Source of the DNA: Ilumatobacteraceae bacterium
GTDB taxonomy: Bacteria; Actinomycetota; Acidimicrobiia; Acidimicrobiales; Ilumatobacteraceae
Direction of reading: 5' to 3'
DNA length: 29,486 bases
Assembly: GCA_964228515.1 (NCBI GenBank)
Contig: CAXRBC010000053.1
Coordinates: 1 to 29,486 of the forward strand
In this document: positions 1 to 26,054 of the stretch, piece after piece
Layout: each line of letters opens with the position of its first letter
Numbering within the stretch: the first letter of the stretch is position 1
Made by a program: the position numbers and the translations under genes
Notes under the pieces: model-generated
The model's input: only the letters and a program-made list of their open reading frames with translations
Databases searched by the model: none
Told to the model about the DNA's origin: nothing

Positions 1-339
1 TGGATTGCGCGCGTGCAGCGTGAACTCACTCGGCGCGGTCTTGATGGTCTCCATCACGACCTCGGGATCGAAGCGCACTCGAGCATCGGTGATCTTCACG
101 CCATCTGCGGGGAACAACTTGCGTGCGTCGGGCTCGAGGAAGTCGATGCCGTGGTCCTGGAGCACCTTGAGGGAGGCGAGGTGGATGGCCTCGACCTCGT
201 CCTCGGAGAGCACCTTGGTCGGCCCGTAGGTCATCTTCGGCTGGGCGAAGGGCTTCTGCTCCGGCAACTTGGAGCGTCCGGCTGCGGCCTGGCGATCCCG
301 TCCGCGCCGACGTCCGCCTGTGGTTTCGATCTCTGTCAC
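1..339 (-). CDS. mttB: Trimethylamine methyltransferase (MttB/MtgB) family protein, N-terminal 113 codons; runs off the window edge
   Basis: Manual translation from GTG at 339 (SD-like GAGGGG upstream): MTEIETTGGRRRGRDRQ...TKVLSEDEVEAIHLASLKVLQDHGIDF...RVRFDPEVVMETIKTAPSEFTLHARNP. Matches the MttB N-terminus and aligns with 19166..20704 (LVSDEVL..ILEEVGV..RVRFP..ARNP). Absent from the ORF track. Confidence 0.88.
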   Translation of the reverse strand, partial: MTEIETTGGRRRGRDRQAAAGRSKLPEQKPFAQPKMTYGPTKVLSEDEVEAIHLASLKVLQDHGIDFLEPDARKLFPADGVKITDARVRFDPEVVMETIKTAPSEFTLHARNP

Positions 340-396
340 GTGTCCCCTCGAGTGGTCAACCCCGATGCGGGGCACAACGTCTAGAGGCTAGTTGCC

Positions 397-443
397 GACC
401 GCCGAATCGGTCATGTCGACACCGCCCGAATCGGGTGCGGTGT
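397..443. terminator. Two tandem GC-rich hairpins just downstream of the etfA stop; possible terminator or RNA-processing element
   Basis: GACCG-CCGAAT-CGGTC (397-412) and ACACCG-CCCG-AAT-CGGG-TG-CGGTGT (419-443). No U-tract, so function is uncertain. Confidence 0.4.
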
Positions 444-445
444 GA

Positions 446-1432
446 CTACTGCCCGCGGCGGCGGCGGATCTCGGCCGAGATCGCCGGGACGACCTTGTGC
501 AGGTCTCCGATGACCGCGTATCCGGCCTTCGTCACGATGTTGGCTTCCTTGTCGGTGTTGATGGCGAGAATGTTCTTCGACGCCATCGCACCCACCCAGT
601 GCTGGATGGCGCCCGAGATGCCGCAGGCGAAGTACACGTCGGGCGCGATGCGGGTGCCCGTCTGGCCGACCTGGTCGGCGTGGTTGCGCCACCCGTTGTT
701 GGTCACCGCGCGCGAGCATCCGACGACGCCGCCCAGCAGTTCGGCGAGTTCCTGCAGCGGTGCAAATCCGTCGGCCGATCCGACCCCCCGGCCGCCGCCG
801 ACGACCACGGGCGCGGTCGACAGCGTGACGCCCGCGGCGCGTTCGGTGCGGCCGCGCACGACGCTGCGCGCGAGCGACGCATCGAGCGTCACCGTGAGCT
901 CCGCGGCCGCCCCCGCGCCGGGCGCCACCGGCGCGGCCGCGTCGTACGCGTGGTGGGCGACCGTGAGCAGCATGGTGGGCGCGGAGGCCGTGGCGTCCTC
1001 GAGCAGCGAGCCGCCCCAGCGCGTGCGCGTGACCGCGACCGCGGTCACGCCATGGCGCGACGGATCGACCGACCCGCAGATGGCCACCATCGGGAGATCG
1101 AGGCGGGCGGCCGCCTGGGCGAGCACTTCGTTGCCCCTGCCCGTGCCGCACGCGACCACGGCGGCGGGCGCGCGTGCCCGCACGGCCTGGGCGCGCACCT
1201 CGCCCCAGGCCTCGGGCCCGTAGTCGGTGAGGATCGCGTGGCGCGCGTGGTGGACGCGCGCGGCGCCGTGGGCCGCGAGCACGCCGCCGAGGCCGTCGGC
1301 CTGCGCGGAGATGCACAGCGCCTCGACGGGCGCCCCGAGCGTCGAGGCCATCGCCCGCGCCGCGGCCATCGCCTCGAGCGTGGCGTCCGCGAGCACGCCG
1401 CGGTCGTGCTCGACGAGGACGAGGACGCTCAC
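446..1432 (-). CDS. etfA: Electron transfer flavoprotein alpha subunit
   Basis: C-terminal motifs VVVGGGRG, GCSRAV, QVGQTG..IAPDVYFACGISGAIQHWVG, AINTDKEANI. Start taken at GTG 1432 (VSVLVLVEH), overlapping the etfB stop (GTGA). The track's 2077 start is an upstream in-frame extension. Confidence 0.95.
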   Translation of the reverse strand: MSVLVLVEHDRGVLADATLEAMAAARAMASTLGAPVEALCISAQADGLGGVLAAHGAARVHHARHAILTDYGPEAWGEVRAQAVRARAPAAVVACGTGRGNEVLAQAAARLDLPMVAICGSVDPSRHGVTAVAVTRTRWGGSLLEDATASAPTMLLTVAHHAYDAAAPVAPGAGAAAELTVTLDASLARSVVRGRTERAAGVTLSTAPVVVGGGRGVGSADGFAPLQELAELLGGVVGCSRAVTNNGWRNHADQVGQTGTRIAPDVYFACGISGAIQHWVGAMASKNILAINTDKEANIVTKAGYAVIGDLHKVVPAISAEIRRRRGQ

Positions 1433-2196
1433 CGCAGCACCCCCAGCTCCTGCAGCAAGTCGACCACCGCGGGCGCGGCCTCGGGGCCCTGGCCGAGCAT
1501 GACGGTCGTGCTCGAGCGCTCCTCGGGGCGCCGCAGGCGGGTCAGGCGCTGCGCGCCCTCGTCTCCCTCCGCGGCGACGACCTGCACCGCGGCCTTCTTG
1601 GACGCGAGGCGCCCCTTCATCGTCGGGTACCGGGGCAGGTTGATCCCCTCGCGGATCCCCACCGCGGCGGGCAGCGGGAGCTCGTACGTCTCGCGACCGC
1701 CGTCGACCTCGCGCTGCACGTGTGCGACGCCGTCGCGCACCTCGAGTCCCTTGGCGCCGTTGACCATCGGGCGGCCGAGGGCGTGCGCGACGCGCACGCC
1801 GACCTGGTAGTTGCAGCCGTCGGCCGACTCGTTGCCGAAGAGCACGAGGTCGAAGGCGCCGTCGCGCGCCTCGATCGCACGGATGGCGGCCGCGATGGCG
1901 CGCGCCGTGCGCTGCGGATCCCACTCCGTCTCGGCGATCGAGAGGAGGACGCCGTCGGTCATGCCGACGCTCGCCGCGTAGCGCAGCTGCTCCTCGGCCT
2001 CGGCGGGGCCGAGCGTCAGGACGGTCGCGGTGCCCCCGTGGGCCTCGACCAGCTGCACGGCCGACTCGACCGCGCACTCCTCGTGGGGGCTGGTGGTGAA
2101 GCCGAGGTGCGCCGTGTCGACGGCGAGCCCATCGTCCGTGACGTTGATGCGCGCGCCCGGCGCGGGCACGCGCTTGACGCAGACGCAGATGCGCAT
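1429..2196 (-). CDS. etfB: Electron transfer flavoprotein beta subunit
   Basis: MRICVCVKRVP, ECAVESAVQL, LVLFGNESAD..YQVG, INLPRYP motifs; adjacent to etfA. Confidence 0.95.
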   Translation of the reverse strand: MRICVCVKRVPAPGARINVTDDGLAVDTAHLGFTTSPHEECAVESAVQLVEAHGGTATVLTLGPAEAEEQLRYAASVGMTDGVLLSIAETEWDPQRTARAIAAAIRAIEARDGAFDLVLFGNESADGCNYQVGVRVAHALGRPMVNGAKGLEVRDGVAHVQREVDGGRETYELPLPAAVGIREGINLPRYPTMKGRLASKKAAVQVVAAEGDEGAQRLTRLRRPEERSSTTVMLGQGPEAAPAVVDLLQELGVLR

Positions 2197-2209: not shown

Positions 2210-4738
2210 TCAGGACTTCATGCGGGCGTCGTCGGGGTCGAAGAGCGGCTTCGACCCGACGCGCGCCACGCGCACGGGGTACGTCTCGTTCATGTACATG
2301 ACCTTGAGCTCGTTGCCCTCGACCGCGTGCTCCGGTGGCAGGTACGCCATGAGGAGGTACGTGCCGAGCGACGGAGCCGCGCCGGCCGTGGTCACTCGCG
2401 AGACGCGACCCTTGGCGTCGACGATGCGCGCGCCGTCCTTGGTGAGGATCGGCTCGTTGCCGCCGGTCGGGTATCGGTCGATCCCCTCCGCGCTGCGGTG
2501 GCTCAGCATCTCGAGCGTGCACATCGTCGTGACCTGAGGCTCCCCGCGGGCCTCGAGGTAGGCGGCCTTGCCGATGAAGTCGGCCGACTTGACCTTGGGA
2601 CGCGCGAGCCCGGCCTCGACGGGGGTGTACTCGCTCTCGAGCTCCGAGCCCATGAGGCGGTAGCCCTTCTCGATGCGGCCCGTGAGGCCGTACACGCCGA
2701 TGCCGACGGGCACGATGCCGTACTCCTTGCCCGCCTCCGCGATGGCGTCCCACAGCCGCAGGCCGTGCTCCATCTTGGTGTAGACCTCCCATCCGTTCTC
2801 GCCGACGTACGAGATGCGGAACATGGTGCACGGCGCGCCGTCGATGAGCACGTCGCGCACGGAGCCGTAGGGGAACGCGGCCTGCGAGACGTCGAGCGAC
2901 TTGTGGTCGCCCGTGACGATCTTGGCCATCGTCCGCTCGGCGTTGGGGCCCCAGACGCCGATCGTGCAGAGGCCGGCCGACATGTCGGTGAACGTCACGG
3001 AGCCGTCGGTCGGCATGTGCCGGCGGAACCAGTGCTTGTCCCGCCCGCCGTCGAACGCGCCGGTGATCACGCGGAAGTGCTCGGCGCCGAGGCGCATGAT
3101 CGTGAGGTCGGCGCGGAAGCCCCCGTGCGGGGTCAGCAGCGGTGTGTAGACCGAGCGACCCACGGGGACGTCCACGTTGTTGACGCACATCCACTGCAGG
3201 AACGCGAGGGCGCCGGGGCCGGTGAAGTCGAACTCGTTGAACGCGGTGAGGTCCACCATGCCGACCGACTCGCGCATCGCGAGGTGCTCTGCGTTGATGA
3301 TCGGCGACCACCAGCGCGCGTCCCACTCGTGCGCGCGGGGCTCGCACTTGCCGGCGTACTTCGTGAGGAGGCGGGCGTTGGACTCGTACCACTGCGGCCG
3401 CTCCCAGCCGCGGGCGTCGAAGAACACGGCGCCGAGCGCCTCCTCGCGGGCGTAGAAGGGGCTCCGGCGCATGCCGCGCTGCGAGGCCCACTGCTCGCGG
3501 GGGTGGACGATGCCGTAGGTCTTGTTGAAGTGCTCGGCGCATCGGGCGTAGATGTGGTGCTCGGTCTTCTCGTGCGCGTAGAAGCGGCTGATGTCCGACG
3601 TGTGCGGGTCGCAGAGGTGCGGGTAGCCGTAGGTCATCCACTCGGCGACGAGCTGGGCGATGCCCGGACCCTCCTTGATCCAGACCGCGGCGGCCGACCA
3701 GAGGTTCTTGACCTCCGGGGTCTCGCCGAGCACGGGCATGCCGTCCGGCGTGAGCGAGAGCAGCCCGTTGATCGCGTACTTGATCTCGGCGTCGCCGAGC
3801 ATCTCCATGAGGTCGATGGCCTGCTCCAGCTGCGGGTCGAAATCGTCCGCCGTGAAGGGCATCTCGGTGGGGGAGAGCGCCGCCTCCTCGTTGGACGGGA
3901 TCTCGTCCGGGTGGTGGAAGATCGGGCGGTGCGCGTACGAGCCCACCTCCATGCTGCCGGCCGTCTGGCGCTCGTAGCAGAACGTGTCCATGTCGCGCAC
4001 GATCGGGTATGCGACCTCCTTGTTGGACTGCTGCAGCACGTCGATCGGGCCGACGTCGGCCATCTGGTGCACGGCGGGCGTGAGGGGGATCTCGGCGCCC
4101 GCCATCTTGGCGATGCGCGGGCTCCAGCAGCCGCAGGCGATGACGACGTGCTCGGCCTCGATGCGGCCCTTGTCGGTCACGACGGCCTTGATCGTGCCGT
4201 CGGCGGTCTCGAGCGCGGTGACCTCGGTGTTCGGGAACACCTTGAGGCCCGCCTCCTTGACCGCGTACTCGCGCATGAGGGTGCCCGTCTGGAGGGAGTC
4301 GACGACCGACACGCTCGGCGTGTAGTAGCCGCCGAGGAGGATCTTCTCGTTGATGAACGGCACGAGCTCCTTGATCTCCGCCGGCGACACGAGGCGCGCG
4401 TCGATGCCCCACGACTTCGCCGACGTCATGCGGCGCTTGAACTCCTCGAGGCGCTGCGGCTCGCGGGCGACCTCGATGCCGCCGCACGTGGAGTTCATCC
4501 CGTGCTCGACGTACTGGCGCTGACTCTCGAGGGTGAGGAACGCCATCTCCTTGTTGTGGTCGGTGGGGAAGATGAAGTTGGACGCGTGGCCGGTGGAGCC
4601 GCCCGGGTTGGGCAGCGGGCCCTTGTCGAGCAGCACCATGTCGCGCCAGCCGAGCTTCGCGAGGTGCCCGACCAGGCAGTTGCCGACGATGCCTGCGCCG
4701 ATCACGACGACCTTCGCGCGAGACGGAACCTGACTCAT
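2210..4738 (-). CDS. Dimethylglycine/sarcosine dehydrogenase-type FAD enzyme with C-terminal GcvT-like folate-binding domain (842 aa)
   Basis: Rossmann VVVIGAGIVG; GGSTGHAS (His at the covalent-flavin position of DMG oxidase/dehydrogenase); FYAREEALGAVF..ARGWERP, VGMVDLTAF, RISYVGENGWEV. SD AAGGGGG upstream. Exact substrate is inferred. Confidence 0.88.
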   Translation of the reverse strand: MSQVPSRAKVVVIGAGIVGNCLVGHLAKLGWRDMVLLDKGPLPNPGGSTGHASNFIFPTDHNKEMAFLTLESQRQYVEHGMNSTCGGIEVAREPQRLEEFKRRMTSAKSWGIDARLVSPAEIKELVPFINEKILLGGYYTPSVSVVDSLQTGTLMREYAVKEAGLKVFPNTEVTALETADGTIKAVVTDKGRIEAEHVVIACGCWSPRIAKMAGAEIPLTPAVHQMADVGPIDVLQQSNKEVAYPIVRDMDTFCYERQTAGSMEVGSYAHRPIFHHPDEIPSNEEAALSPTEMPFTADDFDPQLEQAIDLMEMLGDAEIKYAINGLLSLTPDGMPVLGETPEVKNLWSAAAVWIKEGPGIAQLVAEWMTYGYPHLCDPHTSDISRFYAHEKTEHHIYARCAEHFNKTYGIVHPREQWASQRGMRRSPFYAREEALGAVFFDARGWERPQWYESNARLLTKYAGKCEPRAHEWDARWWSPIINAEHLAMRESVGMVDLTAFNEFDFTGPGALAFLQWMCVNNVDVPVGRSVYTPLLTPHGGFRADLTIMRLGAEHFRVITGAFDGGRDKHWFRRHMPTDGSVTFTDMSAGLCTIGVWGPNAERTMAKIVTGDHKSLDVSQAAFPYGSVRDVLIDGAPCTMFRISYVGENGWEVYTKMEHGLRLWDAIAEAGKEYGIVPVGIGVYGLTGRIEKGYRLMGSELESEYTPVEAGLARPKVKSADFIGKAAYLEARGEPQVTTMCTLEMLSHRSAEGIDRYPTGGNEPILTKDGARIVDAKGRVSRVTTAGAAPSLGTYLLMAYLPPEHAVEGNELKVMYMNETYPVRVARVGSKPLFDPDDARMKS

Positions 4739-4754
4739 GGATGCCCCCTTACCG

Positions 4755-4777
4755 CTGGTATATCAGTACCATATCAG
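4755..4777. promoter_or_regulatory. Candidate GntR operator overlapping divergent -10 boxes
   Basis: CTGGTATATCAG near-palindrome (4755-4766) inside TGGTA-N6-TACCA; ATATCAG repeated (4760-4766, 4771-4777); TACCAT (+, 4767-4772) and TATGGT (-, 4768-4773). Confidence 0.65.
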
Positions 4778-4778
4778 C

Positions 4779-5456
4779 ATGAGCGACGCCCGCGAAACCC
4801 TGAGCGGGCGCGCCTACGACGCGATCCGTCGCAAGATCGTGCGGCTCGAGCTCGCGCCGGGCGACGTGGTCTCCGAGTCGGACCTGCAGCGAGAGCTCGG
4901 CATCGGTCGCACGCCGATCCGCGAGGCGCTCCAGCGCCTGGCGCGCGACCAGTTCATCGTCGTCATGCCTCGGCGCGGGATGATCGTCTCGGGCGTCGAC
5001 GTGTCGGAGCTGGCGATGCTCTACGAGACGCGCGCGATCCTCGAGCCATACGCGGTGCGCCTCGCGGCCGAGCGCGGCCGCGAGGAGGACTGGGACGAGA
5101 TGGCGGCCGTGCTCGCCGGCGGCGCGTCGCACGCGCCCGCCGACCTCATCGAGGTGGACCGGCGCTGCCACGAGATCGTCTGGCGGGCGGCGGGCAATCG
5201 CTTCCTCGTCGACACCCTCGACATGTTGTACGCGCAGAGCGACCGACTCTGGCACATGTACCTCGCCGACGTCGCCGACATGGGTGAGGCGGTGGACGAG
5301 CACCGCGAGATCCTCGGCGCGCTGCGCGCGGCCGACGGCACCCGGGCCGCGTCGCTCGCGGAGGCCCACGTCCGTTCGTTCGACGCGCGGATCCGCGACG
5401 CCGTGTCGCGTCGCCTCAGTCGTTCTGCACGTGCTGGAAGCCGAAGCGCCCCTTGA
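4779..5456 (+). CDS. GntR/FCD-family transcriptional regulator
   Basis: wHTH RAYDAIRRKIVRLELAPG..SESDLQRELGIGRTPIREALQRLARDQFIVVMPRRG plus FCD domain (DRRCH..IVWRAAGN..L, EHREIL.AL). Start at ATG 4779 preferred because the 4737 start collides with the divergent gene's start codon. Confidence 0.93.
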   Translation: MSDARETLSGRAYDAIRRKIVRLELAPGDVVSESDLQRELGIGRTPIREALQRLARDQFIVVMPRRGMIVSGVDVSELAMLYETRAILEPYAVRLAAERGREEDWDEMAAVLAGGASHAPADLIEVDRRCHEIVWRAAGNRFLVDTLDMLYAQSDRLWHMYLADVADMGEAVDEHREILGALRAADGTRAASLAEAHVRSFDARIRDAVSRRLSRSARAGSRSAP

Positions 5457-6269
5457 TGCACAGGTTGCCGTGCGTGACCGAGTGGTCCGACGGCGAGGTG
5501 ACCTTGACGATCCGGTCGTCCTGGACGTGCAGGGTGAGGGCACACCCGACCCCGCAGTAGGGGCAGATCGTGTCGGTGCGGCTCTGGCGGGACTCGTCCC
5601 ACGTGCCGGCTGCGCGCATGTCGTGCTCGCTCGTGAACATGAGGGCGCCCGTCGGGCACACCTGGATGCAGTTGCCGCAGTAGACGCACGCCGAATCGGG
5701 CAGCGGCGTCTCGTACTCGGTCGCGATGTGCGCCCCGAAGCCGCGGCCGGCCGTGGCGATCGCGAAGGTCTGCTGCCACTGCTCGCCGCAGGCGTCGACG
5801 CACTGGTAGCACAGGATGCACTTGGCGTAGTCGCGCACGTACAGCGCGTTGTCGCGCTTCACCGGCTGGGCGACCGTCGCCGCGTCCGGTCCGAAGCGGG
5901 CGGGGTCGGCGCCGTACGCCTCGTTCCATCGCGCCACGTTGGCGGTGAGCGACAGGTCGACCGAGGACCCGAGGAGCTCGAGTACGAGGCGGCGGCTGTG
6001 TCGCGTCCGCTCGGTGTCCGTGCGGACCTTCATGCCCGGCTCGGCCTTGCGCGAGCACGACGGCACGAGCGTCCGCGAGCCCTCCACCTCGACCATGCAC
6101 ACGCGGCAGGCGTTCTTGGGGGTGATCGTGTCGCCGTAGCAGAGGGTCGGCACCTCGGTGCCGCGCGAGCGGCAGGCCTGCAGGAGCGTCGTGCCCTCCG
6201 GGACCGTGACCGGCGCTCCGTCGATCGTGAGCTCGACCGACCGTCGCACGGTGAGCCCGGTCGTCTCGG

Positions 6270-6273
<4 letters not shown>
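5416..6273 (-). CDS. Formate dehydrogenase iron-sulfur subunit (FdsA/NuoG N-terminal part: 2Fe-2S, 2x4Fe-4S and the Mo-proximal 4Fe-4S motif)
   Basis: From ATG 6273 (ATGA overlap): PTLC..NACRVCMVEV..PSC; CILCYQCVDAC; CVYCGNCIQVCPTGAL; TICPYCGVGC..GNLCIKG. Confidence 0.9.
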
Positions 6274-8068
<1,795 letters not shown>

Positions 8069-8078
<10 letters not shown>

Positions 8079-15105: not shown

Positions 15106-15130
15106 CCCCCAGGGTCCCCGCGGACCCCGC

Positions 15131-15733: not shown

Positions 15734-15748
15734 GCGCGCCCGGACCCC

Positions 15749-16144
15749 ATGCCGCGCAACGCGAGCGAGGTCGTGGTCATCTATTGGCGCGACATCCCGG
15801 CGCAGGTCAACGCGCAGCAGGGCCGCGACCGTCGTCAGGTCGTGTTGGGCGCCAAGTTCGCGCGTGCGATCGACCGCGCGAAGCGCAAGGCGCACATCGA
15901 CACCGCGCACGAGGACGTGGCGCAGTGGCGCCGGGTGAGCGTGCCGCTCGAGGGCTCGCTCGACGACGCCGCGCACCGCGAGGCCGCCCGCCTGGAGGTG
16001 GACTACCCTCGGGAACGCCTCGGCAAGCTCGCCTACGCGGGCGGCTGGGAGAAGGACGTGGAGGACGGGCCGGTCGACGCCGCCGAGCTCGCGGCCCTCG
16101 AAGAGTTGGACGACACCGAAGACGACAGCGAAAGGGACGAGTGA
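15749..16144 (+). CDS. Small PF13769 ('virulence factor' family)-like protein with acidic C-terminal tail
   Basis: VIYWRDIPAQV, FARAIDRA, QWRR motifs recognised from memory; 131 aa. Confidence 0.65.
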   Translation: MPRNASEVVVIYWRDIPAQVNAQQGRDRRQVVLGAKFARAIDRAKRKAHIDTAHEDVAQWRRVSVPLEGSLDDAAHREAARLEVDYPRERLGKLAYAGGWEKDVEDGPVDAAELAALEELDDTEDDSERDE

Positions 16145-16151
16145 CCGCGCC

Positions 16152-17072
16152 ATGACCGAGACCCTGGTGTCCTCCGCGACGCGCGAGGTGGTGATCGGCT
16201 TCGACCGACCGTTCGTGATGATCGGCGAGCGCATCAACCCGACGGGCCGCAAGCTGCTCGCCGAGGAGATGAAGAACGGCGACTTCTCGCGCGTCGAGGC
16301 CGACGCCCGCGCGCAGGTGGAGGCCGGCGCCCACATGCTGGACGTCAACGCGGGCATCCCGCTCGCCGACGAGCCCGCCCTGCTGGCGCGGGCGGTCGAG
16401 CTCGTGCAGTCCGTGACCGACGTCCCCCTGTCGATCGACTCGTCGATCGTGGCGGCGCTCGAGGCCGGGCTCCGGGTCTACAAGGGCAAGGCGCTGCTCA
16501 ACTCGGTGACGGGGGAGGAGGAGCGCCTCGAGGCCGTGCTGCCGCTCGTCAAGAAGTACGGCGCGGCGGTGGTCGCGATCTCCAACGACGAGACCGGCAT
16601 CAGCATGGACCCCGACGTCCGCTTCGCGGTGGCCAAGAAGATCGTGGAGCGCGCGGCCGACCACGGCATCCCGTCCAGCGACGTGGTGGTGGACCCGCTC
16701 GTGATGCCGATCGGCGCGCTCGGCGACGCGGGACGCAGCGCGTTCCGCCTCATCAGGCGCCTGCGCGAGGAGCTGCGGGTCAACACGACCTGCGGGGCGT
16801 CCAACGTGAGTTTCGGCATCCCGGGCCGCAACCAGATCACCGGGACGTTCCTCGCGATGGCGGCCGGTGCCGGCATGACGTCCGCGATCATGAACCCCCT
16901 GCACCCCGAGGTGAAGACCATGGTGATGGCCGCAGACGTGCTGACGGGCAACGACAAGGACTGCATGGCGTGGATCCGCGCGAACCGCGACCCCAACGAG
17001 CCCGCGGGTGCGCGCGGCGGTCGCGAGGGTCGCGAGGGGCGCCGCCGCGCCCGACAGGCGCCGCAGGGCTGA
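16152..17072 (+). CDS. Methyltetrahydrofolate:corrinoid methyltransferase (pterin-binding, AcsE/MtgA/MetH folate domain)
   Basis: MIGERINPTGRK, QVEAGAHMLDVNAG, PLSIDSS, LLNSVTGE, VVDPLVMPI, CGASNVSFG, AIMNP. Confidence 0.92.
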   Translation: MTETLVSSATREVVIGFDRPFVMIGERINPTGRKLLAEEMKNGDFSRVEADARAQVEAGAHMLDVNAGIPLADEPALLARAVELVQSVTDVPLSIDSSIVAALEAGLRVYKGKALLNSVTGEEERLEAVLPLVKKYGAAVVAISNDETGISMDPDVRFAVAKKIVERAADHGIPSSDVVVDPLVMPIGALGDAGRSAFRLIRRLREELRVNTTCGASNVSFGIPGRNQITGTFLAMAAGAGMTSAIMNPLHPEVKTMVMAADVLTGNDKDCMAWIRANRDPNEPAGARGGREGREGRRRARQAPQG

Positions 17073-17114
17073 GCCCGACGCCGCGCCGGCGCGCGCGGCG
17101 AGAATGAGGGGACC

Positions 17115-19142
17115 ATGACCCACCGCGTCGTCTTCACGCCGTCGGGTCTCGACGCCCGGGTCGAGTCGGGCACCACCGTCCTCGACGCCGCGCGCAGGCT
17201 CGGCGTCGACGTCGACTCGGTCTGCGGCGGCCGCGGCATCTGCGGCCGGTGCCAGATCACGCCCAGCGTCGGGGCGTTCGCCAAGTGGGGGATCACCGCG
17301 TCCCCCGACGCGCTGAGCGCGCCGGGGGAGACCGAGACGGCCTACCGCGGCAAGCGCCCGCTCGCGCCGGGCAACCGGCTCGGCTGCGCCGCGCGCATCC
17401 AGGGCGACTGCGTCATCGACGTGCCGGCCTCGAGCCAGGTGCACCGTCAGGTGGTGCGCAAGGACCTGGACCTCGCGTCGTTCGCCGTCGACCCGCTCCA
17501 CTCGCTGCTGTACGTGACGGTGCCCGCGGCGCAACTCGGCGACGGCACGACCGCTGCCGACGCGCTGCGCCGGGCCGTGGCCACCCAGCACGCACGACCC
17601 GAGCCCCTCGTGTCGCGGCGCGCGCTGCGCGTGGTGCACGAGGCGCTCACCCGCGGGGAGGGCGAGGCGACGGTCGCGCTGCGGCACGGGCACTCCGCGC
17701 GGGGCGGCGGCGACGAGATCGTGGCGGCGTGGCCCGGCTTCGTGGACCGCGCGTACGGCATCGCGGTCGACGTGGGCTCCACCACGGTGGCGGGGCACCT
17801 CTGCGAGCTCTTCACGGGCGAGGTGGTCGCGAGCGGCGGCGTGATGAACCCGCAGATCCGATTCGGCGAGGACCTGATGAGCCGCGTGTCGTACGTGATG
17901 ATGAACCCGGGCGGCGCCGAGGAGCTCACGCGCGCCATCCGCGGCGCGCTCGACGGGCTGGTCGGCGACCTGTGCGCCCGCGCCGACGTGCCGCGGGATC
18001 GAGTGCTCGACGTCTCGATCGTGGGCAACCCGATCATGCACCACGTCGTGCTCGGCATCGACCCGACGCCGCTCGGCCAGGCGCCGTTCGTCCTCGCCAC
18101 CGACGAGTCGGTGACGGGATGGGCCTCCGAGGTGGGCATCGACCTGCCCTTTGCGCACGTGTACCTCGGGCCGTGCATCGCGGGGCACGTCGGGGCCGAC
18201 ACGACCGCGGCGATGCTCGCCGAGGGGCCGCACCGCGGCGAGGCGATGCAGCTGCTCGTCGACGTGGGGACCAACGCCGAGATCGTCCTCGGCGATGCGC
18301 GGCGGCAGTTCGCGGCGTCGTCGCCGACGGGGCCGGCCTTCGAGGGCGCGCAGATCTCGGCCGGCCAGCGCGCGACGGCGGGCGCCATCGAGCACGTGCG
18401 CATCGACCGCGCCACCCTCGAGCCGCGGGTCAAGGTCATCGGCGCGCCGATGTGGAGCGACGAGCCGGGCTTCGACGAGGCCGTCGCGCGCACCGGAGTG
18501 ACGGGCATCTGCGGCTCGGGCATCATCGAGGTCGTCGCCGAGATGTACCTCTCGGGCGTCATCGGCGCGGACGGCGTGGTGGACGGCTCCCTCGCCTCGC
18601 GCTCGGCGCGCGTCGTGGCCGAGGACCGCACGTACTCCTACGTGCTCTGGGATCGCGGCGGCGTGCGCCTCGCCGTGACGCAGAACGACGTGCGTGCGAT
18701 CCAGCTCGCCAAGGCCGCGCTGCGCGCCGGCATCGACCTACTCGTCGAGCACGCCGGCTCGCCGCCGCTGTCCGACATCCGACTCGCCGGCGCGTTCGGC
18801 GCGCACATCGATCCCGTCTACGCGATGGTGCTGGGTCTCGTGCCCGACTGCCCCGTCGCGGGCGTGCGCAGCGTGGGCAACGCCGCCGGCGCCGGCGCGG
18901 TGCAGGCCCTGCTGTCGCGGGAGCGCCGGCGGGAGCTCGAGTCGCTCGCGCGGGCGGTGACCAAGATCGAGACCGCGACCGAACCGCGCTTCCAGGAGTT
19001 GTTCGTCGCCGCGATGGCCTTCCCCCACGCGAGCGCGCCGACCCCGCACCTCGCGGCCGCGATCGACCTCCCCGCGCGCGTCGAGCACGCCGACGGTCGA
19101 TCGGCCGACGCGGGTCGAGGCCGGCGCCGGCGCGCCCGGTAG
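17115..19142 (+). CDS. RACo/RamA-type ATP-dependent corrinoid reductive activator (2Fe-2S plus ASKHA/DUF4445)
   Basis: N-terminal ferredoxin VCGGRGICGRC..RLGC; AVDVGSTT, FGEDLMSRV, HVGAD, LVDVGTNAEIVLG, GPAFEG, GICGSG, LAGAFG, GNAAGAG. Confidence 0.92.
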   Translation: MTHRVVFTPSGLDARVESGTTVLDAARRLGVDVDSVCGGRGICGRCQITPSVGAFAKWGITASPDALSAPGETETAYRGKRPLAPGNRLGCAARIQGDCVIDVPASSQVHRQVVRKDLDLASFAVDPLHSLLYVTVPAAQLGDGTTAADALRRAVATQHARPEPLVSRRALRVVHEALTRGEGEATVALRHGHSARGGGDEIVAAWPGFVDRAYGIAVDVGSTTVAGHLCELFTGEVVASGGVMNPQIRFGEDLMSRVSYVMMNPGGAEELTRAIRGALDGLVGDLCARADVPRDRVLDVSIVGNPIMHHVVLGIDPTPLGQAPFVLATDESVTGWASEVGIDLPFAHVYLGPCIAGHVGADTTAAMLAEGPHRGEAMQLLVDVGTNAEIVLGDARRQFAASSPTGPAFEGAQISAGQRATAGAIEHVRIDRATLEPRVKVIGAPMWSDEPGFDEAVARTGVTGICGSGIIEVVAEMYLSGVIGADGVVDGSLASRSARVVAEDRTYSYVLWDRGGVRLAVTQNDVRAIQLAKAALRAGIDLLVEHAGSPPLSDIRLAGAFGAHIDPVYAMVLGLVPDCPVAGVRSVGNAAGAGAVQALLSRERRRELESLARAVTKIETATEPRFQELFVAAMAFPHASAPTPHLAAAIDLPARVEHADGRSADAGRGRRRRAR

Positions 19143-19165
19143 GCGATGGGTAGCGTGATCCGTCG

Positions 19166-20704
19166 ATGAGCGACGGGACCCGCACGCGCCGGTCGGGTGG
19201 GCGCGCCGGACGCCAGCAGGCGAGGGCGTCGCACGCCGTCGAGCGACCGCCGTACATCACGCGGGCCTTCACGCCCGTGGAGCTCGTGAGCGACGAGGTC
19301 CTGTCGCTGCTCGAGGACAACGCGGATGCGATCCTCGAGGAGGTCGGCGTCGAGATCCGCGGGTACCCGTCGGCGATCGCGCGCTTCAAGGACGCGGGGG
19401 CCGACGTGGACGGCGACCGCGTGCGGTTCCCCCGCGGCATGTGTCGCGCCATCGTGCGGGCCTCCGCCCCCGCCACCTACGTGCAGTCGGCGCGCAACCC
19501 GGCGCACGACGTGCTGATCGGCGGCAACGCCACCGTCTTCGCGCCCAACTACGGCTCTCCCTTCGTGCGCGACATCGATCGCGGCCGCCGCTACGCGACG
19601 CTCGAGGACTTCCAGAACATCGTGAAGCTCACCTACCAGTCGCCCCACCTGCACCACTCCGGCGGCACGGTCTGCGAGCCGGTGGACGTGCCCGTGAGCA
19701 AGCGGCACCTCGACATGATCTACGCCCACCTGCGCTACAGCGACAAGCCCTTCATGGGGTCGGTCACGGCGGGGGAGCGAGCCCAGGACAGCGTCGACAT
19801 GGCGCGCATCGCCTTCGGCGGGGACCTGCGGGACCGCACGGTCATGACCAGCCTGATCAACGCCTCGTCGCCGCTGGTGTGGGACTCGACCATGCTCGCC
19901 GCCGCCGAGGTCTATGCGACGCACAACCAGGCGACGATCATCACCCCGTTCATCCTCGCCGGGGCGATGGCGCCCTCGACCTCCGCCGGCGTCGCGGCCC
20001 AGACGCTCGCCGAGTCGCTCGTCGGGATGGCCTTCACCCAGCTCGTGCGCCCGGGCGCCCCGGTGATCTTCGGATCGTTCGCCTCCTCGATGTCGATGCA
20101 GACCGGCGCGCCGACCTTCGGCACGCCCGAGCCGGCGCTCGTGCTCTACACGATCGCCGCGCTGGCCCGCCGGCTCGGCGTGCCGTTCCGCTCCGGGGGC
20201 TCGCTGACGGCGTCCAAGATCGCCGATGCCCAGGCCGCCTACGAGAGCGCGGCGACGCTGATCCCGACGATCATGGCGGGCACCAACTTCGTGCTCCACG
20301 CCGCGGGATGGCTCGAGGGCGGCCTCGCCTTCGGCTACGAGAAGTTCATCCTCGACGAGGACCAGTGCGGGATGATGGCCACCTTCGCCCGCGGACTCGA
20401 CGCGTCCCCCAACGGTCAGGCCCTGGACGCGATCAGGGGCAACCAGCCGGGCGTCCACTTCCTCGGGACCGCCCACACCCTGGCCAACTTCGAGACGGCG
20501 TTCTACCGCTCCAACACGGCGGACAACGAGAGCTTCGAGAAGTGGCTCGAGGACGGGAGCCTCGACGCGCAGACACGAGCGAACAAGATCGTGAAGGAGC
20601 GCCTCGCGTCGTACGTGCCGCCGCCGATGGACGACGCCATCGACGCCCAGCTGCTGGAGTTCGTCGCGCGGCGCAAGGCCGAACTGCCCGACGCGTTCGC
20701 CTGA
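19166..20704 (+). CDS. mttB: Non-pyrrolysine trimethylamine-methyltransferase family protein (glycine betaine:corrinoid methyltransferase-like)
   Basis: ARNP, FAPNYGSPF, CEPVDVP, SDKPFMG, INASSPL, TPFILAGAMAP, GAPTFGTPE, GGSLTASKIADAQAAYES, HAAGWLEGG; no in-frame TAG. Confidence 0.93.
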   Translation: MSDGTRTRRSGGRAGRQQARASHAVERPPYITRAFTPVELVSDEVLSLLEDNADAILEEVGVEIRGYPSAIARFKDAGADVDGDRVRFPRGMCRAIVRASAPATYVQSARNPAHDVLIGGNATVFAPNYGSPFVRDIDRGRRYATLEDFQNIVKLTYQSPHLHHSGGTVCEPVDVPVSKRHLDMIYAHLRYSDKPFMGSVTAGERAQDSVDMARIAFGGDLRDRTVMTSLINASSPLVWDSTMLAAAEVYATHNQATIITPFILAGAMAPSTSAGVAAQTLAESLVGMAFTQLVRPGAPVIFGSFASSMSMQTGAPTFGTPEPALVLYTIAALARRLGVPFRSGGSLTASKIADAQAAYESAATLIPTIMAGTNFVLHAAGWLEGGLAFGYEKFILDEDQCGMMATFARGLDASPNGQALDAIRGNQPGVHFLGTAHTLANFETAFYRSNTADNESFEKWLEDGSLDAQTRANKIVKERLASYVPPPMDDAIDAQLLEFVARRKAELPDAFA

Positions 20705-20758
20705 GGCGCCGCCCGCTCGACGCGCGCCGCCCCCGCTCCGCCCCGTAGCATCGCCGCG

Positions 20759-21631
20759 ATGAGGATCCCGTTCCTGCGCCGCGGCGCGACGTCCGCCGTC
20801 ACCCCCGCCGCCCGCGCACTCGTGCGCGCGATGCGCTACGAGATCATCCCGATGAAGAGCATCGAGCAGGCGATCGCCGACCTGCCCGCCGGGGCGCCGG
20901 TCTCGGTGACGTGCTCGCCGGCCAAGGGCATCGCCGCCACGCAGGAGTACGCCGCCCGCCTGATCGCCGCCGGCCACGACGTGGTGCCGCACTTCGCGGG
21001 CCGCCTCGTCGAGTCGCGGGAGCACGTGCGCGAGCTGGCGCGGTGGGCCCGCGAGCACGCGGTGCGCGAGGTCTTCCTGATCGCGGGCGACGCCGAGGCG
21101 CCCAAGGGGCCGTACGCCGACTCGCTCGGCTTCCTCCGCGACTTCCTCGACTCCGACAGCGGCGTCACGCGCATCGGTTTCGGGTCGTACCCCGACGGGC
21201 ACGCCTTCATCGACCGCGACTCGCTCTCCCGTGCGCTGCACGACAAGCAGAAGTTGCTCGACGACGCCGGCGTGCAGGGACTCGCGTCGACACAGATGTG
21301 CTTCGACGTCGAGGGCATCCGCGCCTGGCTCCGCGAGGAGCGCGACCGCGGATTCCGCATGCCGATCCAGCTCGGCGTGCCGGGTGTCGTGGACCGCACC
21401 CGTCTCATGACCCTCGGCGTGCGCGTGGGCGTCGGTGCCTCGATGCGCTACCTGGCCAAGAACAAGTCCTCGGTCATGAAGATGCTCTCGCCCGGCGGGT
21501 ACGACCCGACCGAGATGGTGGCGGGCCTCGCGGCCGACGCCGAGCGGCTCGGGATCGTGGGGCTGCACTCCTTCACGTTCAACAGCGTCGCCGACACCGC
21601 GGCCTGGGCGCGCGAGATCCTCGCGGCCTGA
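20759..21631 (+). CDS. metF: Methylenetetrahydrofolate reductase-like protein (short, atypical subfamily)
   Basis: YEIIP, VSVTCSP, VVPHFAGRLV, VFLIAGD..PKGPYAD, YPDGH, ALHDK, TQMCFD, VGVG.S, LHSFTFN; MTHFR-type TIM-barrel motifs. Confidence 0.85.
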   Translation: MRIPFLRRGATSAVTPAARALVRAMRYEIIPMKSIEQAIADLPAGAPVSVTCSPAKGIAATQEYAARLIAAGHDVVPHFAGRLVESREHVRELARWAREHAVREVFLIAGDAEAPKGPYADSLGFLRDFLDSDSGVTRIGFGSYPDGHAFIDRDSLSRALHDKQKLLDDAGVQGLASTQMCFDVEGIRAWLREERDRGFRMPIQLGVPGVVDRTRLMTLGVRVGVGASMRYLAKNKSSVMKMLSPGGYDPTEMVAGLAADAERLGIVGLHSFTFNSVADTAAWAREILAA

Positions 21632-21654
21632 GCGGCGCCACCCGGAGCCTGATC

Positions 21655-22956
21655 GTGGGTCGCACCGCGGACGTCGTCGTCGTGGGCGGCGGCGTGATGG
21701 GCGCGTCGATCGCGCTCGAGCTGTCGCGCCACGGCCGCTCGGTGGTGGTGATCGACAAGGGTGGTGCGCCCGGCGCCGGCTCGACGAGCGCGTCGTCCGC
21801 GATCATCCGCTTCACCTACTCCAACTTCAACACGATCCTGATGGCGTGGGAGGCCGCGCAGTACTGGTACGAGTGGCCCGCGTTCGTCGGCGTCGAGGAC
21901 CCGGACGGCATGGCCAAGTTCGTGAAGACCGGCTACCTCGTCTTCCTCACCGAGGGCTACGACGGCGCGCGCCAGCGCGAACTGTGGGACCAGTTCGGCA
22001 TCCCGTACGAGCTGCTGAGCCCCGAGGAGGTGCGCCGGCGCTGGCCGGCCTTCGAGACCGGCAAGTTCTACCCCCCGAAGTCGATCGACGATCCCGCCTT
22101 CGCGGACGACCCCTCCGACCAGCTCTGGGCCCTGTTCGATCCGCTCAGCGGTTTCATGGACGACCCGATGCTCGCGGCGCACAACCTCGCGCACGCCGCC
22201 AAGGCCCACGGCGCGGACTTCCGCTTCCACCAGGAGGTCGTCGAGGTGCGCCGCGAGGGCGGTGCGGTGCGCGGCGTCACGCTCGCCTCGGGCGAGCGCA
22301 TCGATGCGCCGATCGTCGTCAACGCCGCGGGCCCCCACGCCGCGAAGGTCAACCGCATGGCCGGCGTGTACGACGAGATGAAGGTCAAGCACCAGCCCCT
22401 GCGCCAGGAGGTCTTCTCCCCGCCGGCGCCCGTCGGCTTCCGCCTCGAGGACTCGGCCCCCATCGTCGCCGACCTCGACCTCGGGCAGTACTTCCGCCCG
22501 CACATGGGCGACCTGCTCAACGTCGGGACCACCGAGCCGGCGTGCGACCCCCTGCACTTCATCGACGATGCCGACGACTGGAACCAGTCGGTGACCGTCG
22601 AGTTCTTCGAGCGCGTCATGCTGCGCCTCGCGCGTCGCCTGCCCGACTTCGGCATCCCGCACAAGCCGCTCGGCATCGGCGCGCTCTACGACGTGACCGA
22701 CGACTGGATCCCGCTCTACGACAAGTCGAGCCTCGACGGCTTCTTCATGGCGTGCGGCACCAGCGGCAACCAGTTCAAGAACTCGCCGCTGGTCGGCAAG
22801 TTCATGCGCGTGCTCATCGAGGCCGCCGAGCGCGGCGTCGACCACGACGTCACCCCGCTGACCTGGACGGGCGAGCACACGGGCAAGGAGATCAACCTGT
22901 CGGCCTTCTCGCGCCTGCGGACGCAGGCCGTGACCGCCGGCAACGTGATGGGCTGA
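21655..22956 (+). CDS. FAD-dependent amine oxidoreductase (DAO / sarcosine oxidase beta-like), no folate domain
   Basis: From GTG 21655: VVVVGGGVMGASIA..VIDKG..GSTSASSAIIRFTY, IVVNAAGP, LYDVTDDWIP..FFMACGTSGNQFKNSP.VG. Confidence 0.85.
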   Translation: MGRTADVVVVGGGVMGASIALELSRHGRSVVVIDKGGAPGAGSTSASSAIIRFTYSNFNTILMAWEAAQYWYEWPAFVGVEDPDGMAKFVKTGYLVFLTEGYDGARQRELWDQFGIPYELLSPEEVRRRWPAFETGKFYPPKSIDDPAFADDPSDQLWALFDPLSGFMDDPMLAAHNLAHAAKAHGADFRFHQEVVEVRREGGAVRGVTLASGERIDAPIVVNAAGPHAAKVNRMAGVYDEMKVKHQPLRQEVFSPPAPVGFRLEDSAPIVADLDLGQYFRPHMGDLLNVGTTEPACDPLHFIDDADDWNQSVTVEFFERVMLRLARRLPDFGIPHKPLGIGALYDVTDDWIPLYDKSSLDGFFMACGTSGNQFKNSPLVGKFMRVLIEAAERGVDHDVTPLTWTGEHTGKEINLSAFSRLRTQAVTAGNVMG

Positions 22957-22991
22957 CGCGCGGCCCGCCCGGGCCATGCGAGACTCGCCGC

Positions 22992-24020
22992 GTGCGCGCA
23001 CGGCTCGAGGAACTGTTGGCCTCGGGCCGGACGGTCCTCGCCGACGGCGCGACCGGGACCAACCTCTTCGCCGAGGGCCTCACGTCGGGCGAGCCGCCCG
23101 AGTTCTGGCTCGAGACGCACCCCGACCGGGTGCGACGGCTGCACCGCCGCTTCGTCGACGCGGGTGCCGACGTCATCCTCACCGACTCCTTCGGGGCCAA
23201 TGCGCGGCGCCTCGCGCTGCACGGCGCCGCGCACCGCGCGTACGAGCTCTCGCGGCTCGCCGCGGCGACGGCCCGGGAGGTGGCGGACGCGGCGCCGCGG
23301 CCCGTGGTCGTCGCGGGCTCCGTCGGCCCGACGGGCGAACTCTTCGCCCCGCTCGGCGCGCTGACGCACGACGACGCGGTCGCGACGTTCACCGACCAGA
23401 TCCGCGGCCTGCGCGACGGCGGCGCGGACGTCGCGTGGATCGAGACGATGTCGGCGCCCGAGGAGGTGCGCGCCGCGGCGGAGGCGGCGATCGCCTGCGG
23501 CATGCCGTACGTCGCGACCTGCAGCTTCGACACCGCGGGCCGCACGATGATGGGGCTCGCCCCCGCGACGCTGGCCGGGGTGTTCGACGGCCTCGCGGTC
23601 GCGCCGCTCGCGATGGGGGCCAACTGCGGGGTCGGCGCCTCCGACCTGCTCGTGTCGGTGCTCGAGATCTCGCGCGGCGCCGGCACGCTGCCCGTGGTGG
23701 CCAAGGGCAACTGCGGGATCCCGCGCTTCGTCGGCACCGAGATCTCCTACTCGGGCACGCCCGAACTGATGGCGCGCTACGCCGTGATGGCGATCGACGC
23801 GGGCGCGCGCATCGTCGGGGGCTGCTGCGGCACGACGCCGGAGCACCTCGCGGCCATGCGCCGCGCGGTCGACGCGCACGCGCGTGGCGCGGCTCCGAGC
23901 GTCGAGGACGTCGTGCGTGAGATCGGGCCGCTGACCAATTCGGCGCCGAGCGTCAGCGAGCCGCGACCAGCGAGCGAAGGCGCTCGTCGGGGGCGGGCCG
24001 GGCGCCGAGGTGACCGATGA
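22992..24020 (+). CDS. Homocysteine S-methyltransferase domain protein (MetH Hcy-binding module / Bmt-like)
   Basis: From GTG 22992: LADGATGTNL, FVDAGADVILTDSFG, AGSVGPTG, IETM, GANCG and IVGGCCGTTPEH (Zn-binding cysteines). Confidence 0.9.
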   Translation: MRARLEELLASGRTVLADGATGTNLFAEGLTSGEPPEFWLETHPDRVRRLHRRFVDAGADVILTDSFGANARRLALHGAAHRAYELSRLAAATAREVADAAPRPVVVAGSVGPTGELFAPLGALTHDDAVATFTDQIRGLRDGGADVAWIETMSAPEEVRAAAEAAIACGMPYVATCSFDTAGRTMMGLAPATLAGVFDGLAVAPLAMGANCGVGASDLLVSVLEISRGAGTLPVVAKGNCGIPRFVGTEISYSGTPELMARYAVMAIDAGARIVGGCCGTTPEHLAAMRRAVDAHARGAAPSVEDVVREIGPLTNSAPSVSEPRPASEGARRGRAGRRGDR

Positions 24021-26051: not shown

Positions 26052-26054
26052 CTC

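Follow-up and report, generated by a model that had tools for sequence, protein, structure and literature searches.

The window, a stretch of 29,486 nt that constitutes contig C53 of the metagenome-assembled genome (MAG) G000 (1.51 Mb, 253 contigs, 91% complete, 5% contamination), carries a gene cluster which is probably the counterpart in Acidimicrobiia of the aerobic, cobalamin-dependent MtgBCDE system for the demethylation of glycine betaine, located beside the genes for the rest of a route from betaine to CO2. The pathway itself is known from aerobic Proteobacteria (2018-2025); new are its host, a freshwater member of the Acidimicrobiia, and some of its parts. All steps of the route proposed here were inferred from homology and genomic context.

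According to this proposal the choline dehydrogenase BetA would convert choline to glycine betaine. MtgB would then form dimethylglycine by transferring one methyl group of the betaine to Co(I) on the corrinoid protein MtgC. MtgD is predicted to pass the methyl group from MtgC to tetrahydrofolate (THF), and MtgE, as the alternative acceptor branch, may pass it to homocysteine, giving methionine. Inactive Co(II) would be returned to Co(I) by the RamA-like activase together with the DUF1638 protein and probably also with a small protein of the family PF13769. The methyl-THF (CH3-THF) is presumed to be oxidised to methylene-THF (CH2-THF) by the cluster's own homologue of methylenetetrahydrofolate reductase (MTHFR), after which FolD and Fhs would release formate with the gain of one ATP and a selenocysteine-containing (Sec), NAD-linked formate dehydrogenase (FDH) would oxidise the formate to CO2. 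Flavoenzymes of the dimethylglycine dehydrogenase (DMGDH) type presumably demethylate dimethylglycine and sarcosine, thereby loading CH2-THF, and transfer the electrons via the electron transfer flavoprotein (ETF) to the respiratory chain.

The gene content fits the hybrid route suggested in the earlier note, in which one methyl group is removed via cobalamin and the others by flavoenzymes. However, the route as such is not uncharacterised, since the same modules have been demonstrated by proteomics and knock-outs in Ruegeria pomeroyi and by work on Phaeobacter inhibens. In R. pomeroyi DSS-3, betaine, choline and carnitine induce MtgB (PF06253), MtgC, MtgD, a RamA-like protein, a DUF1638 protein and MetF2 (Mausz et al. 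PNAS 2025, PMC12478193). Knock-outs of mtgC/mtgD lost both growth on betaine and methionine prototrophy, and methionine failed to restore the growth of these mutants on betaine (PMC12478193). The Ruegeria modules are accompanied by DMGDH/ETF and by THF-linked C1 oxidation, with MtgE as the homocysteine module; about 70% of the carriers of the mtg system are without MetH, and 5% of the ocean mtgC reads were assigned to Actinomycetota (PMC12478193). Fitness data of P. inhibens revealed that three MetH pieces, a RamA-like protein and a DUF1638 protein are needed for methionine synthesis, and tie DUF1638 genetically to B12 reactivation and methionine synthesis (Price et al. PLoS Genet 2018, PMC5764234). 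According to its citation in PMC11868366, the aerobic corrinoid-MetF-FolD logic dates back to the chloromethane pathway of Methylobacterium. A literature search returned nothing specific on this system or on MttB in Acidimicrobiia, and a preprint on Rhizobiaceae was found not to treat mtg genes.

The G+C content amounts to 70-76%. Since such values fill raw lists of open reading frames with false frames, the frames were picked by their third-position G+C (GC3) and named by scans against Pfam and NCBIfam (Table 1). All genes named in the earlier note were recovered, and five further genes were detected in the same stretch: mtgE, the DUF1638 and PF13769 genes, a DAO-family oxidoreductase gene and a GntR regulator gene. 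In every sequence-level character of the aerobic MtgBCDE system (MttB, corrinoid protein, MtgD, MtgE, RamA-like protein with DUF1638) the window genes agree with it.

The plus-strand operon (10092-24020) is compact, with gaps of 7-54 nt, and runs in the order fhs, folD, betA, mtgC, DUF1638, PF13769, mtgD, RamA-like activase, mtgB, MTHFR homologue, DAO oxidoreductase and mtgE; ATGA/GTGA overlaps occur among the cluster genes. It is divergent from the FDH genes, which are separated from the dmgdh-etf group by the GntR/FCD gene, a candidate for the local regulator. By its sequence the DAO-family protein is a candidate oxidoreductase for sarcosine or another N-methyl amino acid.

The conservation of the cluster was assessed by tblastn of the window proteins against 80 related loci containing the best MttB orthologues (73-82% identity), nearly all of which belong to Acidimicrobiia, either Ilumatobacteraceae or "Acidimicrobiaceae" MAGs from lakes, rivers and soils. 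The core mtgC-DUF1638-PF13769-mtgD-ramA-mtgB-MTHFR retains its gene order in more than 50 of the 80 loci and in most of those long enough to show it; therefore, the arrangement is not due to chance. The individual genes were detected in 80 (mtgB), 71 (ramA), 62 (PF13769), 58 (mtgC), 57 (MTHFR), 55 (DUF1638) and 54 (mtgD) loci. Adjoining this core, etfAB-dmgdh(-gntR) was found in 28-29 of the 80 loci with 65-83% identity, gntR being kept beside dmgdh in 13. The loci with betA number 18 and those with fhs 16; for the DAO gene and for mtgE the counts are 13-18, the DAO gene standing at its window position in 13. A search of gene neighbourhoods and taxonomy, which the earlier note had suggested as a check, thus shows the cluster to recur across Acidimicrobiia. 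Among 301 sampled Acidimicrobiia genomes an MttB-family gene was present in 65, including 17 of the 31 genomes of the same family.

Clusters with a comparable gene order (corrinoid-DUF1638-PF13769-MetV-MetF-pterin methyltransferase-ASKHA activase) were detected in Sinorhizobium meliloti and Azoarcus sp. KH32C, with MttB, ETF, an FAD oxidoreductase, ProVWX and PurU encoded nearby; the Azoarcus cluster sits among the ProVWX betaine-transport genes, ETF and the FAD oxidoreductase. The identity of the window proteins to those of Sinorhizobium and Azoarcus amounts to 77-80% for MtgC, 67-72% for MtgD, 54-57% for RamA, 46-52% for DUF1638 and 38-41% for PF13769, and MtgB shares 60% of its residues with the MttB encoded beside mtgC in Sinorhizobium. 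Compared with solved structures, MtgB scored 652 bits against PDB 4yyc versus 387 bits against the MtgB of Desulfitobacterium hafniense (2qne; phmmer). Based on the identities of MtgC, MtgD and MtgB and on these scores, the module is not acetogen-style by descent, as the earlier note had it; its nearest relatives are aerobic proteobacterial clusters of the same gene order. The high identity of MtgC and MtgD across phyla suggests either a lateral transfer of the corrinoid core or a very strong constraint.

Unlike MtgC and MtgD, the ETF and the DMGDH are only 31-36% identical to those of the S. meliloti (L084) and Azoarcus (pAZKH, L085) loci. The PLSDB record of the former, CP090106.1 ("Sinorhizobium meliloti strain Ak57 plasmid pSymB"), has a length of 3.72 Mb, about that of the chromosome, and its replicon label is probably wrong.

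The full-length MttB-superfamily protein of the operon, which shares the motif HAAGWLEGG with PDB 4yyc, is a candidate glycine betaine:corrinoid methyltransferase. An identity as pyrrolysine-containing trimethylamine methyltransferase was rejected, as its gene contains no internal stop and the protein scored 254 bits versus 525 for TIGR02369 and 101 bits against 7xcl. In the D. hafniense enzyme betaine is held in a cage of Y97 and F356 (cation-pi) and of R312 and H348 (carboxylate), and the exchange F356L raises the Km several hundred-fold; in superfamily members acting on other substrates R312/H348 are conserved, whereas the aromatic pair is not (PMC13080624). In the phmmer alignment to 2qne three of the four cage residues are kept in the window protein, Y97, R312 and H348 as Y129, R342 and H378, while F356 aligns with G386. 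Due to this glycine the substrate could be another quaternary amine. A tryptophan four residues upstream (W382), which is also present in 4yyc, may serve as second aromatic residue in place of F356.

Alternatively, the substrate of the main MttB protein (19166-20704) may be some methylated amine other than glycine betaine, for instance proline betaine, carnitine, gamma-butyrobetaine or a derivative of choline, in which case glycine betaine would be left to another paralogue or to none. This would agree with the loss of F356 and with the retention of R312/H348 without the aromatic pair among superfamily members of different substrate, and also with the three additional MttB paralogues of G000, of which two are encoded next to DMGDH-like genes. 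However, the glycine betaine-forming betA shares the operon in 18 of the 80 loci, Y129, R342 and H378 are kept, and the protein resembles both the Sinorhizobium MttB encoded beside mtgC (60% identity) and 4yyc (HAAGWLEGG). Furthermore, betaine induces the orthologous system of Proteobacteria, whose growth on this compound depends on it; a different substrate thus seems unlikely.

Methionine synthesis appears to be a second function built into the cluster, since it contains all three MetH-like modules and no other methionine synthase was found. The only matches to the MetH model in G000 are the three modules of this operon, no match to model positions beyond about 850 was obtained anywhere in G000, and neither a full-length MetH nor MetE was detected in it. 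In the aerobic MtgBCDE system a RamA-like activase and a DUF1638 protein stand in for the AdoMet reactivation domain of MetH. A full-length MetH is likewise absent in 8 of 15 cluster-bearing relatives, including G301 of the same genus (99% complete) and G008 (100% complete, two contigs); it is present in 8 of 9 cluster-less genomes. Furthermore, mtgC is the only gene of its kind in G000. The earlier note had seen a module serving only methionine synthesis as speaking against the catabolic route; a methionine role is indeed present, yet it does not refute the route, being one half of the function as in Ruegeria.

It could be argued that the corrinoid module is essentially anabolic, that is, a split methionine synthase (MtgC, MtgD, MtgE, activase and the sole MTHFR) to which MttB feeds betaine-type methyl groups for methionine and S-adenosylmethionine, the neighbouring C1 and DMGDH genes belonging to general folate metabolism. 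G000 lacks detectable MetH, MetE and canonical MetF, no MetH or canonical MetF was found in G008 and G301, mtgE and the only MTHFR gene reside in the operon, and the homologues in Phaeobacter are needed for methionine synthesis (PMC5764234). This explanation does not account for betA, the Sec-FDH, fhs and dmgdh-etfAB, which stand repeatedly beside the core across species, nor for four MttB and four DMGDH-like paralogues in a genome of 1.5 Mb, which are far beyond the needs of methionine supply. Since methionine does not rescue the Ruegeria mtgC/mtgD mutants on betaine and both roles coexist there (PMC12478193), a purely anabolic module is quite improbable.

Within the proposed catabolic system, a tentative and rather doubtful extension concerns the streamlined lineage (G000, G301, G008), for which the operon would provide the only MTHFR and the only methionine synthase. 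If the MTHFR is biased towards oxidation like its nearest solved relative, quaternary amines from the environment might be the main source of the methionine methyl group via MttB, MtgC and MtgE, which would make the supply of methionine dependent on donors of the betaine type and on imported B12. The PF13769 protein might in addition be an unrecognised subunit that binds to MtgC at its His-loop and cap.

The gene named MetF in the earlier note indeed encodes an MTHFR homologue, with PDB 7xg9 as nearest solved relative (E 2e-30). However, it remains below the canonical MetF models (PF02219 E 1.7e-3, 17 bits versus 24; TIGR00676 28 bits versus 294). The structures 7xg9 and 7xlf represent S6MTHFR of Sphingobium lignivorans SYK-6, a type 4 MTHFR (Yu et al. 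Commun Biol 2025, PMC11868366). Type 4 S6MTHFR is an FAD enzyme that oxidises CH3-THF and barely binds NAD(H), and type 4 enzymes pair with THF-dependent demethylases, including the corrinoid CmuAB of the chloromethane (cmu) pathway of Methylorubrum extorquens CM4 (PMC11868366). An identity as the mycobacterial flavin-independent Mfr was discarded, as 7xg9 is S6MTHFR (PMC11868366) and no PDB match to Mfr was obtained at E values up to 1.

In the alignment to 7xg9 the context of the catalytic glutamate (YEIIP) is kept. The type 4 signature comprises the loop b2-a3 (L48, P49, with R78), the helix a8 (F215, C219) and the loop b8-a11 (P268-F269-G-G-L272) (PMC11868366), for which the window protein has S-P, one Arg, L and V, and T-F-N-S-V, respectively. 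As most of the signature residues are changed, it is not a strict type 4 enzyme.

The genomic distribution points to a link between the MTHFR homologue and MttB. Of 300 sampled Acidimicrobiia genomes, which are related and thus not independent, 50 encode both, 14 only MttB, 5 only the MTHFR homologue and 231 neither; the homologue therefore co-occurs with MttB in 50 of 55 genomes, and its gene usually adjoins mttB. Nine of 15 cluster-bearing genomes (including G008, G301 and G023) encode no MTHFR homologue besides it, whereas all 9 cluster-less genomes encode a canonical MetF. No canonical MetF was found in G000, G301 and G008, and tblastn searches of G000 with the Azoarcus proteins likewise yielded no MetV or MetF. 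To judge from these patterns, the homologue appears to stand in for the MetF2 or MetVF found in proteobacterial clusters, and for MetF as well in the streamlined lineage.

The three FDH genes (5416-10003, minus strand) are predicted to encode a selenocysteine enzyme. An in-frame TGA (9734-9736) lies in the motif SCNRT-U-HAPSV at the metal-ligand position before the His, and is followed by a hairpin that resembles a selenocysteine insertion sequence (SECIS). All eight relatives carrying the FDH gene share this TGA and the stretch TCGGTGGTCGGTCTGGCC without change, in spite of variation at neighbouring wobble positions. The hairpin is part of the minimum-energy fold. Its fold energy alone is not significant in GC-rich sequence (z -0.9), and the argument for a SECIS thus rests on conservation. 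The hairpin with its GGUCU loop presumably resembles the SECIS of Escherichia coli fdhF closely. Furthermore, SelD is encoded on contig C57 (252 bits versus a cut-off of 125) and a tRNA-Sec was detected in 16 of 30 relatives, including members of the same genus. On C57 (L088), whose end truncates selD, two divergent DMGDH-like genes and an MttB paralogue are located as well.

A further peculiarity of the FDH is that its alpha subunit is split at the boundary between the Fe4S4 and Mo domains, the two halves flanking a NuoE-NuoF fusion. In transcription order the genes encode the catalytic domain, NuoEF and the Fe-S part, with overlapping stop and start codons. The Molybdop_Fe4S4 domain, which normally starts the FDH alpha subunit, here ends the Fe-S subunit (residues 241-293 of 294), and the catalytic subunit starts just past this domain boundary (..RLTTPMVR..). 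The split order is also found in locus L040 and partly in L017.

At the gene level the use of Fhs rather than PurU, as assumed in the earlier note, was confirmed: tblastn of G000 with the Azoarcus protein revealed no PurU, and fhs adjoins the cluster in 16 relatives. Formyl-THF would then most simply be cleaved by Fhs with a gain of ATP. The opposite, acetogen-like direction, in which CO2 would be reduced via formate and formyl-THF to CH3-THF and feed the corrinoid system for methionine and assimilation, is extremely unlikely even though Fhs, FolD, MTHFR and an NAD-linked FDH could each in principle work in both directions and the MTHFR homologue has Thr and Asn as in E. coli MetF where type 4 has Pro and Gly, since the host encodes a heme-copper oxidase, the cluster contains no genes for CO dehydrogenase/acetyl-CoA synthase, the products of its methyl-releasing enzymes MttB, DMGDH and BetA need disposal, and the characterised homologous systems of aerobes oxidise methyl groups.

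The gene of the small PF13769 protein has kept its place in the actinobacterial clusters as well as in those of Sinorhizobium and Azoarcus, and its product contains an invariant WRDIPxQxN motif. A literature search returned no paper on PF13769. Prediction of a complex with MtgC resulted in a score of 0.82 versus 0.00 for the best control, a mark reached in the calibration by 58 of 80 solved complexes and by 2 of 110 mismatched pairs, these counts being rough due to the use of our own alignments. According to the model, MtgC is contacted at its DxHxxG loop and its cap helix, and the prediction supports a possible binding of the PF13769 protein to MtgC. Structural neighbours in the ESM Atlas include a Verrucomicrobiota cluster with PF13769 fused to B12-binding domains, which is based on automatic annotation and serves as a lead only.

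Besides the glycine aligned with F356, several further findings weigh against the assignment of the cluster to betaine oxidation. The residues of type 4 MTHFRs that enforce oxidation are mostly changed (L48S, F215L, C219V, P268T, G270N, G271S; P49, F269 and one Arg are kept), and the homologue is also the only MTHFR found in G000, so that the oxidative direction and the electron partner presumed for it are tentative. Neither tRNA-Sec (ARAGORN, Rfam) nor SelB was found in the 91%-complete G000, which most likely reflects the incompleteness of the MAG, as SelD is present and relatives have tRNA-Sec; the best "SelB" match was EF-Tu. With regard to uptake, G000 contains no BCCT or OpuAC-type betaine/choline uptake protein, and only a ProW-like permease (a fused double ABC permease on the 3.9-kb contig C234) was detected; tblastn of G000 with the Azoarcus protein gave no ProX. 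A BetB equivalog, an ETF-QO domain and cobQ were not found in G000 either. Without cobQ the B12 must be imported, and the organism is probably a B12 auxotroph. Due to the incompleteness of G000 we regard the missing pathway genes as gaps rather than as refutations. Short contigs at least 99% identical to fragments of the fdhA, fhs, mtgD, mtgB and MTHFR genes were detected in one freshwater metatranscriptome; they constitute weak evidence of expression, as reads of an RNA library may be carried-over DNA.

The earlier note's attribution to an actinobacterial-type genome was correct, given that the MttB orthologues stem from Acidimicrobiia MAGs and that G000 encodes a heme-copper oxidase. The host is an oxygen-respiring planktonic member of the Acidimicrobiia and Ilumatobacteraceae-like. 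It is also widespread: the segment 14386-20704 is near-identical (87-93% of sampled 31-mers) in at least 20 metagenome runs of at least 9 studies from 2021-2025, which represent freshwater, lake, reservoir and estuary samples. G000 encodes four MttB-family and four DMGDH-like proteins, yet a single MtgC, MtgD and RamA, and the one MtgC probably serves several MttB paralogues. A third contig of G000, C236 (L087), carries genes for an ABC permease, a PhyH-family dioxygenase, a DMGDH-like protein and an MttB paralogue.

Table 1. Predicted genes and other features of the window with their positions, strand and supporting matches.
Feature	Position	Strand	Evidence
MttB-family (non-pyrrolysine) paralogue, N-terminal 125 aa only, runs off the window	1-375	-	PF06253 E 1.9e-23; 61% identity to the C236 paralogue
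etfA, electron transfer flavoprotein alpha	446-1432	-	ETF and ETF_alpha domains; GTG start overlaps etfB stop
etfB, electron transfer flavoprotein beta	1429-2196	-	PF01012 E 4e-28
DMGDH/SARDH-type enzyme, FAD amine dehydrogenase fused to folate-binding GcvT-like domain	2210-4738	-	DAO, FAO_M, GCV_T, GCV_T_C
GntR/FCD-family regulator, divergent from dmgdh-etfBA	4737-5456	+	GntR and FCD domains
FDH Fe-S subunit, NuoG-N-terminus-like (2Fe-2S, 4Fe-4S)	5416-6273	-	Fer2_4, Fer4_7, Molybdop_Fe4S4; ATGA overlap with preceding gene
FDH NuoE-NuoF fusion, FMN/NAD(H)-binding diaphorase module	6270-8078	-	2Fe-2S_thioredx, Complex1_51K, SLBB, NADH_4Fe-4S; nuoF_fam 429 bits
FDH catalytic Mo/W-bisPGD subunit	8069-10003	-	Molybdopterin and Molydop_binding; Fdh-alpha 560 bits after UGA
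SECIS-like element, UGA and hairpin GGUGGUC-GGUCU-GGCCACC, 11 nt downstream of UGA	9704-9736	-	Minimum-energy fold and conservation
fhs, formate-tetrahydrofolate ligase, first gene of the plus-strand operon	10092-11789	+	PF01268 848 bits, full length
folD, methylene-THF dehydrogenase/methenyl-THF cyclohydrolase	11800-12690	+	THF_DHG_CYH and THF_DHG_CYH_C
betA, choline dehydrogenase, GMC flavoprotein	12722-14371	+	TIGR01810 800 bits vs cut-off 732; NF002550 832 vs 605
mtgC, stand-alone corrinoid (B12-binding) protein	14386-15105	+	B12-binding_2 (PF02607) and B12-binding (PF02310); DIHDIG His-on motif (DxHxxG)
DUF1638 protein	15131-15733	+	PF07796 E 1.9e-23
PF13769 ("Virulence_fact") small protein	15749-16144	+	PF13769 E 4.5e-16
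mtgD, methyl-THF:corrinoid methyltransferase, pterin-binding	16152-17072	+	Pterin_bind; NF005719 361 bits vs cut-off 259
RamA-like/RACo ATP-dependent reductive activase, N-terminal 2Fe-2S ferredoxin	17115-19142	+	Fer2, RACo_linker, Raco_middle, RACo_C_ter
mtgB-like MttB-superfamily methyltransferase, full-length, non-pyrrolysine	19166-20704	+	PF06253 720 bits; no internal stop
Divergent MTHFR homologue, 290 aa	20759-21631	+	PDB 7xg9 E 2e-30
DAO-family FAD oxidoreductase, sarcosine-oxidase-beta/proline-dehydrogenase-like	21655-22956	+	PF01266 E 4.6e-56; best PDB match 1y56_B "sarcosine oxidase" E 8e-19
mtgE, homocysteine-binding S-methyltransferase	22992-24020	+	PF02574 E 2.9e-62; NF005718 492 bits vs 338; Zn-ligand motifs GANCG, GGCCG
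tRNA	29181-29251	-	Downstream of the cluster

Downstream of the cluster (23953-29486) the window contains genes unrelated to it, which putatively encode a PfkB kinase (minus strand), a family III CoA-transferase, an EamA transporter (minus strand), an MFS_3 transporter and a class-I aldolase-like protein; the closest relatives keep PfkB and EamA beside the cluster. An Rfam scan of the window detected no cobalamin riboswitch and no other family except one tRNA.

If the cluster works as proposed, B12-dependent betaine demethylation would extend from marine Proteobacteria to freshwater Actinomycetota, and methionine supply as well as the dependence on B12 and selenium would be tied to the use of algal osmolytes. 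In that case the mtgB and mtgC of this lineage could also be used to trace the turnover of betaine in inland waters as marker genes. Ilumatobacteraceae-type Acidimicrobiia are common in lakes and rivers. The cluster leaves the current view of the pathway's mechanism unchanged. What the window adds is a freshwater Acidimicrobiia host, the layout of the whole putative route in one locus, a separate lineage of MTHFR, a Sec-FDH with a divided alpha subunit and a protein that may be an additional subunit. The MTHFR lineage that appears to replace MetF and the conserved PF13769 protein predicted to bind the corrinoid hub represent leads for biochemical work.

Compared with known systems, the cluster is most similar to the aerobic Mtg systems. 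Like those of Ruegeria and Phaeobacter it comprises MtgB, MtgC, MtgD, MtgE, an activase of Fer2 and RACo domains and DUF1638 in an aerobic host, and with the clusters of Sinorhizobium and Azoarcus it shares the gene order and 54-80% identity for MtgC, MtgD, RamA and MtgB; the frequent lack of MetH among the carriers and the link to DMGDH/ETF and to THF-dependent C1 oxidation are further common features. In contrast to these systems, it belongs to freshwater Acidimicrobiia within the Actinomycetota and unites mtgE, betA, fhs and folD in one operon adjoining the FDH genes. Moreover, its MTHFR belongs to a divergent S6MTHFR-like lineage instead of MetF2 or MetV-MetF, Fhs is present whereas PurU was not found in G000, and the FDH combines a predicted Sec with a split alpha subunit.

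The MtgB-MtgC-MtgA system of the anaerobe D. hafniense and the MttB enzymes of Eubacterium limosum (Ticak 2014; Picking et al. JBC 2026, PMC13080624) resemble the window system in the MttB-fold TIM-barrel without pyrrolysine, the separate corrinoid protein, the methyl-THF methyltransferase and the RamA-type activation. However, the D. hafniense MtgB is distant in sequence (387 bits versus 652 to 4yyc) and has a phenylalanine, F356, where the window protein has a glycine, and the window MtgC scored 212 versus the cut-off of 370 of the NCBIfam MtgC model. Furthermore, the host of the window respires oxygen and is proposed to oxidise the methyl group, whereas in D. hafniense it feeds the Wood-Ljungdahl pathway.

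With the type 4 S6MTHFR system the window shares an aerobic host, a demethylase forming CH3-THF, a dedicated MTHFR paralogue for its oxidation (as proposed for the window), the subsequent steps via FolD and formate oxidation, and a tight genomic coupling of demethylase and MTHFR. It differs in that most of the type 4, NADH-excluding residues are changed and that its MTHFR can be the only one of the cell. Finally, the FDH resembles the FdsABG and FdhF types in its Mo/W-bisPGD catalytic domain, the (U/C)-H motif, the NuoE/NuoF/NuoG-like modules and the UGA with a GGUCU-loop hairpin; unlike these enzymes it appears to possess a split alpha subunit and, in an aerobic host, to link an NAD module of the FdsABG type to a Sec site.

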